DNA of 64,000 nucleotides from Daphnia carinata (Eukaryota): assembly GCF_022539665.2 (NCBI RefSeq), contig NC_081333.1:7998001-8062000 (forward strand), given 5' to 3'. The position numbers and the translations under genes were made by a program. This document shows positions 32,778 to 35,068 of this stretch, in pieces. Position 1 is the first letter of the stretch. Every line of letters begins with the position of its first letter. The notes below the pieces were generated by a model, which saw only the letters and a list, made by a program, of their open reading frames with translations, did no database searches and was not told the DNA's origin.

Positions 32778-34700
32778 TGGATAAGATAATACAACAAAAG
32801 GATGGTAAGTATAAACATTATTATATTGGTTTTCACTTATTAATTATTGTTTATTAGATCAAATTATGAAGCTGCAGGCCCAATTATTGGAACAACAGAA
32901 AATATTAGATAACAGCAAAGCTAAGGATGGTAAGGCCTAATACGTAATGATTCTATTTATTTGCTTTTATTCGTTTGTGTTTTGTAGCTCAAATTTGAGT
33001 CTACAAGCTCAGCTAGGGGAAAAGAACAAATTGGAACGGAACAGTTTCCAAACAGTGAAGGAGGTTTTTCAAAACTCTTCCCTAACTGAACATTAGGATG
33101 AATTGGCATTAGGCAAACACAGTCAGATATGTAAACTTTTCAAATAAGAATTAAAACTAAGTATAGAATTTTAACAAACAATTATTTATTGTTTAGTTAT
33201 TCAGTCCACCACCTGACAGTGTGTTAAATTTAAATTCTGTTAGTGCTGTACTAAAAGAATCGTTAATAATAAGTCCATGCAGCGAAGGAACTGAAGAATT
33301 GTGGGACCGTATTTGGGCAGAAAATGGGTGTGGTACGGAAACCCAGAAACGGCATGAGTTCAACATAAAACATGGATTAGGTACTTTTCGGTTTTTTGTC
33401 TATTGAAAAAGTATTTTTAATGCTGTTATTTTGCATTCACAGAATTTTAGCGAGGGTTCAAGTAAAATCTGGAAGTGTTACAGGATTGAAGAGTGAGCCT
33501 ACAGTTGAAAAACACTGAAAGTGCATTACCATTAAGGTATGAGCTGCTTCTCTTGCTAAAGAACAACTTGTCCTTTACGTTCAGAGTGTTGGTGAAGCTG
33601 GGTACTTAAATGGCTCTAAAGATGTTTCAATTCGCTGGCATTGCAGCGATGAACATCATACATGGACTCTTAAGGTATGAAAGGAATTTTCTTGAAAATT
33701 TTTTGAATTTATGACGAAGCATTTCTCCTCCTTTTTGCCACCCATGTCTAATCTAAAAAAAAAATTTATCCAGTAGGAAAGGATTTTCAGCACACTGGGA
33801 ACACAACTATCAACAATGCAACATTCTATGGGTGCTATTTTATCATTCAAGAGCCTTATACAATGATTTTTATCTGCAATTTGTATGGCCTTTCCCAAGC
33901 TTCTGCCATAAGTTGAATCTATAAGTCATGTAAGTCACATGAGCAACAATTGAGATGCTTAATGGTGTTGTTTTTCTTTTCTCAGTATAGGTTAAAGAGT
34001 TAAGACAATCTAGCACATTGTCTAATGAGAAGTACCATCTTGTGTTAATAAATCCAGTACAACAGCAATCCTTTATAGTTCTGTCACAGCTAGAAACCTC
34101 AAATAATTCTGCTTCTCTGTCTAAAGAACAACTTGTCCTTTACGTTCAGAGTGTTGGGGAAACTGGGTACTTAAATGGCCCTAAAGATGTTTTAATTTTG
34201 CTGCCATTGCAGAGATGAACATCATACATGGACTCTTTAGGTATGAAAGGATTTTTCTTCAAATAATTTTGAATTTATGACGAAGAATTTCTCCTCCTTT
34301 TTGCCAACCAGGTCTAATCTACCAAAAAAAATTTATCCAATAGGAAAGGATTTTCATGTACTGGGAACACAACTATCAACAATGCAACATTGTACAGGTG
34401 CTAGTTTATCATTCAAGAGCCTTATACAATGATGTTAATCTGCAATTTGTATGTCCTTCCCCAAGCTTCCACCAGAAGTTGAATCTATGAGTCATGTAAG
34501 TTACATGATCAACAGTTGATATGTTTAACGGTGTTGTTTTTCTTTTCTCAATATAGGTTAATAGTAACATTGGATCTGAAAAAATTCTTGGTTGGGGCAA
34601 GACACTGAATAAATTGTATTGATTGGATGGATGACATGACATTTCTATACTTAATTCGGATTCCCCAGACGGTATTTGATATTAAAAAAATTGAAGTGCA
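32778..34700 (+). pseudogene. Decayed spliced gene carried in each foldback arm (coiled-coil-like N-terminus, unknown product)
   Basis: Exons with canonical GT-AG introns encode MDKIIQQKD / DQIMKLQAQLLEQQKILDNSKAKD / AQILSLQAQLGEKNKLERNSFQTVKEV.. / LFSxPPDSVLNLNSV..WAENGCGTET..KHGL. Later exons have stops and frameshifts. Copies lie in all four arms. Confidence 0.6.
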
Positions 34701-35068
34701 TATCTGGGCTCCCTTCTTTTCTGAAGCCCCGTTTCCCCTTGACTCGTAATAAGCCCGTAGGGGGTCATGCCCCTACTGTACGGTATATATAAAAACAACA
34801 TATACCGAGGTTTGGAGGGCTCTGGCCGGAAAGGGGACGTGGGGTGCCGCTTAGTCCGATGATGTGTTCACGGAGGGCGATGTGGCTACCCACAAATCCG
34901 AACTAAAGGTTAATCGCTCCTGTAAAAATGTTCCAAATCTTCAGCTCTTCTTCCGGCTTCTCTTAGCCAATCACCGGGTAATCTCCCCGGTGGGTCAACA
35001 AGGCAGTGTCTCCCCCTGCCTGGGTTGACGGCAACTTTTGAAAAGGCTATTGTGCCTTTTTAAAGTTG
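34691..35068 (+). ncRNA. Conserved ~380-nt multi-hairpin module (putative structured RNA or structured 3' region), copy a
   Basis: Hairpins gtagggg/cccctac, cggtatat/atataccg, caccggg/cccggtg, gtcaac-aggcag/ctgcct-gttgac, gcaacttt-aaaaggc/gcctttt-aaagttgc, followed by AATAAA. Homologs at 35979-36356(-), 49729-50105(+), 52541-52903(-), 56870-57248(+), 58180-58558(-). Confidence 0.6.

Follow-up and report, generated by a model that had tools for sequence, protein, structure and literature searches.

A conserved block with a predicted pseudoknotted RNA fold behind variable, partly host-derived cargo in Daphnia mobile elements

The window analyzed here, a 64,000-nucleotide stretch of Daphnia carinata DNA, contains two palindromic non-autonomous elements of one family and, in these and in two diverged arm types, a block of about 380 nt placed behind gene-like sequence (Table 1). 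The arms of the palindromes are joined tail to tail, with their 3' ends pointing inward. Both elements carry the TATGGCAATCCGTTTTAC start at each end, and the TAYGG..CCRTA termini described for IS3EU are found at all four ends (TATGG at 32596+, 38028-, 55203+ and 60221-), for type A only; in type B, a decayed look-alike near 46598 is the most that is seen. The flanks of element 1, the sole testable copy, match at five of six positions, and those of element 2 are mirrored. An AT duplication with GG ends, as in ISL2EU-like elements, would also fit the flanks of element 1.

Several further features of the locus deserve record. The inverted duplication around element 2 extends about 570 bp past the element ends, and its arms differ at only 1 of 967 outer-arm positions; it reflects a recent rearrangement or else an artefact of assembly. 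The palindrome centers (35120-35900 and 57290-58100) are old, imperfect palindromes, and the element 2 center is pieced together from both strands of its element 1 counterpart, as from folded-back strand repair or from polishing of a fold-back assembly. tRNA-like units with A and B boxes lie in the palindrome center and face the A blocks from downstream, and type C has units of this kind too (Table 1); further degenerate units with A and B boxes occur at 51876-51935 (+) and 35525-35590 (+); ARAGORN called no tRNA. A miniature hairpin element at 54283-54417 has the TATGGCAATCCGTTTTAC start and lacks its right end, and a further TATGGCAA start is found at 54180. As for host genes, mL55 lies at about 29780-30146, where an exon is 100% identical to mL55 of D. 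carinata and 98% to that of D. magna; tandem, apparently host genes for low-complexity Tyr/Thr-rich repeat proteins occupy 39379-45998; and SURF6 and Mpv17/PMP22, at 60800-64000 (-), flank element 2.

Table 1. Coordinates of the elements, block copies, exons, tRNA-like units and predicted helices in the window.
Feature	Position	Strand	Remarks
Palindromic non-autonomous element 1	32596..38028	.	ends TATGG..CCATA; flanks CACTTT/GACTTT
Palindromic element 2, same family	55203..60221	.	inside larger inverted duplication 54630-60794
Block copy A1	34691..35068	+	reference copy, element 1
Block copy A2	35980..36356	-	BLASTN, 99.5% identical to the 34691+ copy
Block copy A3	56870..57247	+	BLASTN, 100% identical to the 34691+ copy
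Block copy A4	58181..58558	-	BLASTN, 100% identical to the 34691+ copy
Block, type B	49729..50104	+	BLASTN, 87.9%
Block, type C	52542..52903	-	BLASTN, 80.1%
Putative start of terminal exon	34557..34690	+	acceptor site common to A, B and C; frame stop 34620-34622; splicing proposed from GT-AG sites
Conserved RNA core, type A copy 1, about 260 nt	34691..34960	+	common to B, C and L018
Conserved tail motif, poly(A)-signal-like hexamer and U-rich stretch	35071..35120	+	putative function
Decayed C-terminal exon of RNA polymerase III largest subunit (RPC1), captured	49208..49411	+	upstream of block B; PDB 7a6h_A residues 1323-1381
tRNA-like unit, A and B boxes	35359..35432	-	faces copy A1 from downstream; Rfam tRNA 21.7 bits, cut-off 29
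tRNA-like unit	35710..35768	+	faces copy A2 from downstream; Rfam tRNA 20.2 bits, cut-off 29
tRNA-like cloverleaf	52138..52208	+	faces block C from downstream; 16.5 bits, z -2.5
Core helix	34706-34710/34725-34729	+	predicted
Long-range core helix	34734-34740/34831-34837	+	predicted, 7 pairs
Core hairpin	34757-34776	+	predicted
Optional hairpin, A and B only	~34781-34807	+	predicted
Long hairpin	34839-34893	+	predicted
Candidate pseudoknot helix	34812-34817/34917-34922	+	crossing with the 34734/34837 helix
Four 3' hairpins	34955..35070	+	common to A, B and C; other hairpins instead in L018

BLASTN within the window finds the block at the six sites where an earlier note on this DNA had placed it, and a covariance model of its first 95 nt recovers the same six copies at 117-125 bits, with the next match in the window at 13.5 bits. 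The four A copies are homogenized across 34013-35120, in the coding part as well (each stretch has 1-3 variable columns), so these copies count as one data point and leave three independent types in the window. With L018, a diverged homologue on a metagenome contig, the independent sequences number four. Pairwise identity among the types is 0.72-0.90 over the first 130 nt and 0.52-0.92 over the next 130 nt, against 0.46-0.54 for shuffles; in the latter segment, pairs with L018 (0.52-0.60) come near the shuffles. The tail of the block is 0.65-0.82 identical among A, B and C, again above shuffles (0.46-0.54), and the flanks fall to 0.47-0.60, mostly at shuffle level (0.46-0.54), the exception being the 150 nt upstream of A and B (0.71). 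Between A and B, identity drops from 90-92% in the core to 71% just upstream. The core of about 260 nt is thus 52-92% identical between types, with a conservation contrast that has sharp edges, which bears out the claim that the block is better conserved than its surroundings among three diverged types. Within the first 95 columns 75 are invariant, and the unpaired bases are highly conserved.

The block is also found outside the window. Among 20 loci from a metagenome scan, one, L018, is a true homologue; it has the first ~260 nt in common and differs in its 3' hairpins and upstream sequence. DNA pattern scans yielded no homologue among 5 loci in viral contigs, where a second scan gave 0 loci, and none among 7 loci in prokaryote genomes. 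Part of the stretch is present in three of the four public sequencing runs listed, with no cover in run X4. Run X1 has 219 contigs over the gene and the block. Run X3, which bears another organism label, has 279 contigs on the 901-nt A stretch, nearly all of them on the block, and 327 on the C stretch, where the tRNA-like unit is covered too and is joined with the block in two contigs. Groups of 8, 5 and 5 contigs in X3 have different upstream flanks at a sharp edge at 34684-34687. The number and variety of these contigs (summed contig depth in the runs is not a copy number) point to a dispersed repeat.

An acceptor-like splice site conserved in A, B and C lies 134-153 nt upstream of the block. 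Read in phase 0 from this acceptor, the frame ends upstream of the block, by 68 nt in A, 83 nt in B and 12 nt in C, and the motif reported to follow the block (AATAAA/AATATA/AATACA) is indeed present. Because the stops precede the block and the poly(A)-like hexamer comes after it, the block appears to sit in a terminal exon, off the protein end, and the overlap with the coding end of the gene that had been proposed is not borne out. The alternative offered in the same note, a structured 3' UTR or terminal exon, seems to fit better, since the frame of the last exon ends before the block. Within element 1, the block is placed beside the palindrome center, about 2 kb inside the element, and it ends about 2.5-3 kb from the termini (32596, 38028); the sequence downstream of it is conserved among copies, with no variable host DNA. 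The first 60 nt can also be read as a frame that ends in tandem stops in all four types. We set this coding reading aside as probably due to chance: in B, C and L018 the frame is interrupted at most five codons upstream, the changes among A, B and C, counted by eye, comprise four silent and five replacement changes, and contigs of runs X1 and X2 have a 1-nt deletion within these 60 nt. In its favor, the frame is open for 46 codons in A, and two loose-end flanks are in frame by eye.

The sequences upstream of the block differ in kind from one type to another. An exon upstream of block B matches the largest subunit of RNA polymerase III among solved structures (PDB 7a6h_A, E 2.6e-8; E 0.0021 for the yeast chain). 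The same search, run with two of the three L018 frames, gave a weak importin alpha match for both (E 0.017-0.04), each in a different part of the protein. No match among solved structures came from the three A frames, two of the three C frames or one further B frame, and the best value for a single A exon was E 0.95. The A frames contain stops and frameshifts that differ among copies. Against Pfam, 19 exon frames, 18 read-through frames and 8 further exons gave nothing at the curated cut-off; among 12 more frames only two scored, both over the host genes at 60798-63999. Single-exon protein searches found nothing for an A exon or for the B exon at 49208-49411, and such blanks are weak evidence because this same B exon later matched RPC1. 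Two repeat proteins matched by a C exon in a representative protein search were rejected as spurious. With RPC1 in B, weak importin alpha similarity in L018 and decayed frames in A, the cargo is variable and partly host-derived, and the cassette is constant. The upstream 'genes' are thus, at least in part, captured host fragments, and are largely decayed.

Some arms have further structure of their own. The 5' part of arm B contains, at 47219-48471, nine 98%-identical repeats of 140 bp, each apparently one exon and one intron. Arm A1 has an additional tandem copy (33544-33995), 90% identical, of the exons at 34109-34561, which the other three arms do not have. In B (50150-51100, -) and in L018 (1-720, +), another gene fragment with introns runs toward the block in convergent orientation, and neither fragment has a Pfam match.

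From the four sequences, the block is predicted to fold as a pseudoknotted RNA. In a four-row alignment (A, B, C, L018), we named 38 pairs in seven helices of the core, or 152 cells, of which 94% are paired, and 6 of the 38 pairs are changed on both sides; one of these six, at column 129, may be produced by the alignment of L018, two of whose helices are misaligned by one column. None of 500 shuffles matches the six double-sided changes or the 94% pairing, and slid controls pair at 49-61%; because the structure was drawn from the same four sequences, this result counts as support and not as a probability or significance test, and kinship among the sequences can by itself beat such shuffles. 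The long-range pair suggested earlier is present as a helix of seven pairs, with 100% of cells paired in the four sequences and two C-G to U-G changes. A second helix (34812-34817/34917-34922), missed in the earlier note, crosses it and is therefore a candidate pseudoknot; here a G-C pair becomes U-A in type C, both strands changing together, and a U.U becomes G-C in C and L018. At the same site the MFE choice, an AGCCC/GGGCU helix, was rejected: it has no double change, and 3 of its 20 cells are broken, in B and C. Among the stems described before, GCAACTTT/AAAGTTGC is kept as claimed. The change from AGGCAG/CTGCCT to AGGTAG/CTACCT in the tail is likewise real (C-G to T-A), and taken alone it lies within chance, being reached by 178 of 500 shuffles; contigs of run X3 have the A-type pair at this place. 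Folded as whole modules, the sense strands have z-scores of -4.6 (A), -2.1 (B), -5.0 (C) and -3.5 (L018).

Several observations speak for the sense strand and for RNA. The reported bias toward G-U pairs on the sense strand is borne out by the three-type consensus fold (-113.5 kcal/mol sense vs -93.8 kcal/mol antisense) and by local hairpin folds, in which the sense strand is lower in both energy and z-score in 10 of 10 comparisons. For the long hairpin, RNA scores beat DNA scores in all four types, and type C has no DNA stem. Folded whole, copy A does better on the antisense strand (z -6.2 vs -4.6). The antisense strand of the block also ends in a T run resembling a polymerase III terminator, and the antisense of 34684-34960 contains a GUCCCC/GGGGC pair reminiscent of P4 of RNase MRP; we discarded that candidate, which has the pair but no Rfam MRP match and the wrong G-U bias. 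Together, the folds support the proposal of a structured, sense-strand RNA carried by a transposon, a proposal that the fourth diverged homologue strengthens.

This RNA matched no known family in Rfam. For the window, L018 and zoomed stretches, nothing reached the gathering threshold (best mir-84, 18.5 of 60 bits, and CAESAR, 19.5 of 45), with RNase P/MRP, 7SK, SRP, U3, ribozymes and IRES among the families compared. Telomerase RNA was rejected by eye against its consensus, as no conserved template is seen, and HDV, twister, pistol, SECIS and frameshift signals were dropped in the same manner.

We tentatively favor the interpretation that the block is a portable terminal-exon cassette, and that its conserved sense-strand RNA fold is likely needed in cis for the propagation of gene-capturing non-autonomous elements. 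The carrier is probably a known transposon lineage with an uncatalogued RNA fold. Polymerase II would transcribe the element from its outer end, and the transcript would be spliced into a fixed terminal exon composed of the acceptor, the RNA core, the hairpins and the poly(A) signal. Recognition of the fold by a protein from an autonomous relative, either a DNA-transposon protein or a Penelope-type reverse transcriptase, would allow the element to be handled and copied. Read-through of the palindrome, which would otherwise give long double-stranded RNA, would be blocked by the tRNA-like polymerase III units downstream. Copies losing the fold would stop spreading, and in this way selection would act on the fold. 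Because non-autonomous elements are selected only for features of their own copying, an RNA fold that outlasts unrelated cargo would most simply be a cis signal. Several points weigh against this interpretation: the structure was chosen from only four independent sequences; copy A, folded whole, has the better z on the antisense strand, which ends in a terminator-like T run; cut-and-paste through terminal repeats needs no RNA signal; the IS3EU-type ends are seen in type A only, with a five-of-six flank match in one testable copy and no transposase or reverse transcriptase found; and the 3' ends of the palindromes face inward, the reverse of the Penelope arrangement.

We regard as unlikely, if credible, a regulatory RNA of the 3' UTR or one acting in trans (in stability, localization, or as a piRNA/siRNA decoy) that would descend from the second gene of an autonomous element, with copying in cis proceeding without need of it. 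Such an RNA would be expected where the block lies, in a terminal exon before a poly(A)-like motif, and the convergent intron-containing gene downstream of the block in B and L018 recalls the opposite-facing gene pairs of IS3EU (PMC12730594). However, non-autonomous copies would not be selected to keep a trans-acting RNA, yet the A and B cores are far more alike than the sequence just upstream of them.

A bolder form of the cassette interpretation is that the core is a new pseudoknotted ribozyme class or an enzyme-loading RNA, and that the cassette mobilizes any intron-containing host sequence upstream of it, which strikes us as decidedly unlikely. If true, it would link IS3EU-type DNA ends to an RNA-dependent step and give Daphnia its own gene-shuffling machine. 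More generally, an RNA that outlasts every protein-coding neighbor in non-autonomous, gene-capturing elements would point to an unrecognized RNA step in their life cycle and may bear on the many duplicated and orphan gene fragments of Daphnia; the closely related Daphnia magna, for which many genomes and transcriptomes exist, allows a direct test.

Compatible with the cis-signal interpretation, and improbable in itself, is a self-cleaving or other catalytic RNA of an undescribed class that would cut the transcript near its 3' end. The conservation of unpaired bases would suit catalysis, as would the order of the helices (X 5', Y 5', X 3', hairpin, Y 3'), which by eye resembles the group I P3/P7/P8 and HDV P1/P2/P4 knots. 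On the other hand, no Rfam ribozyme matched at E up to 10, and comparison by eye with the consensus reveals neither P1.1/L3 of HDV nor P6 or the G-site of group I; the hammerhead core CYGANGA occurs in A, B and C and is absent from the L018 module.

Quite improbable, too, is an independent retroposon or solo LTR lying near captured genes, either a TG..CA unit or a tRNA-headed SINE that is read on the opposite strand and has the T run at 34684-34691 as its end. tRNA-like heads do point at the block in A and C, and the two X3 contigs mentioned above join head and block; contig depth in X3, which does not equal copy number, peaks at its 34690 end, the pattern expected from 5' truncation; and the block in A reads TG..CA with AAAAT on both sides. 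Yet the fold is kept on the other strand, runs of T4-T12 stand between head and block (after the cloverleaf at 52138-52208, about 280 nt pass without a T4 run before a T12 run at ~52488), and B and L018 yielded no tRNA head. Moreover, the A and B sites are homologous and lie behind the same splice acceptor, and the flanks seen in A are not repeated in B or C.

The lead of the earlier note, that the RNA resembles an omegaRNA and serves as guide scaffold to a nuclease or transposase directed by RNA, is highly implausible, since the size, the pseudoknot and the variable loops are compatible with OMEGA scaffolds but the block lies internally, off the element end and downstream of the stops of the last exon, with no variable 14-15 nt 3' extension and with no RuvC protein found in the frames searched.

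Retroelements and OMEGA systems are known to carry large conserved RNA folds. In the literature searched, no such fold was found described for IS3EU/GingerRoot-type elements or Daphnia repeats; Repbase/Dfam, subscription journals and supplements may hold the element as an unclassified Daphnia repeat. HDV-like RNAs, the group I core and P4 of RNase P/MRP have the same crossing-helix order, judged by eye, and their catalytic consensus residues are not seen here. The omegaRNAs of TnpB/Fanzor extend 14-15 nt past the element end and occur with a RuvC protein (PMC13565253). Likeness to these lies in a structured RNA, with a pseudoknot, on the 3' side of a transposon transcript; unlike them, the block is internal, has a conserved tail and has no variable guide extension of 14-15 nt, and the frames searched against Pfam and solved structures contain no RuvC or zinc-finger match.

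Penelope-like elements resemble these elements in having variable sequence upstream of a conserved 3' part, in retaining introns, in carrying host genes and in their inverted structures (PMC8557442). Their inverted copies join at the 5' end, whereas the arms here are joined tail to tail with 3' ends inward, between termini of the DNA-transposon type, and have no conserved hammerhead core. The hammerhead motif of the Penelope-like pLTR is itself absent in Naiad/Chlamys (PMC8557442), and Rfam and motif scans found no conserved motif of that kind here; Pfam searches of the arm frames found no reverse transcriptase or GIY-YIG ORF.

IS3EU and its lineage offer a further comparison. IS3EU has TA..TA ends and 6-bp duplications (PMC10045372), has TAYGG..CCRTA termini in rust fungi (PMC12730594), and is listed at 0.05% of the D. 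pulex assembly and at 0.00% for D. magna (PMC8594854). GingerRoot belongs to this lineage; it picks up intron-containing pieces of genes, and only 6 of 22 such copies retain a DDE motif (PMC6839031). Pfam searches of arm and spacer frames yielded no IS3/integrase-like DDE transposase at the cut-off, as expected because the copies here are non-autonomous. The whole-arm palindromes of 2.2-2.6 kb, the internal RNA fold and the tRNA-like units set the Daphnia elements apart and go unmentioned in the passages considered; shared with that lineage are the TATGG..CCATA ends, the intron-containing host fragments and the carriage of cargo by copies without a transposase, and the near-6-bp flank match of element 1 may be a target duplication of the same kind.
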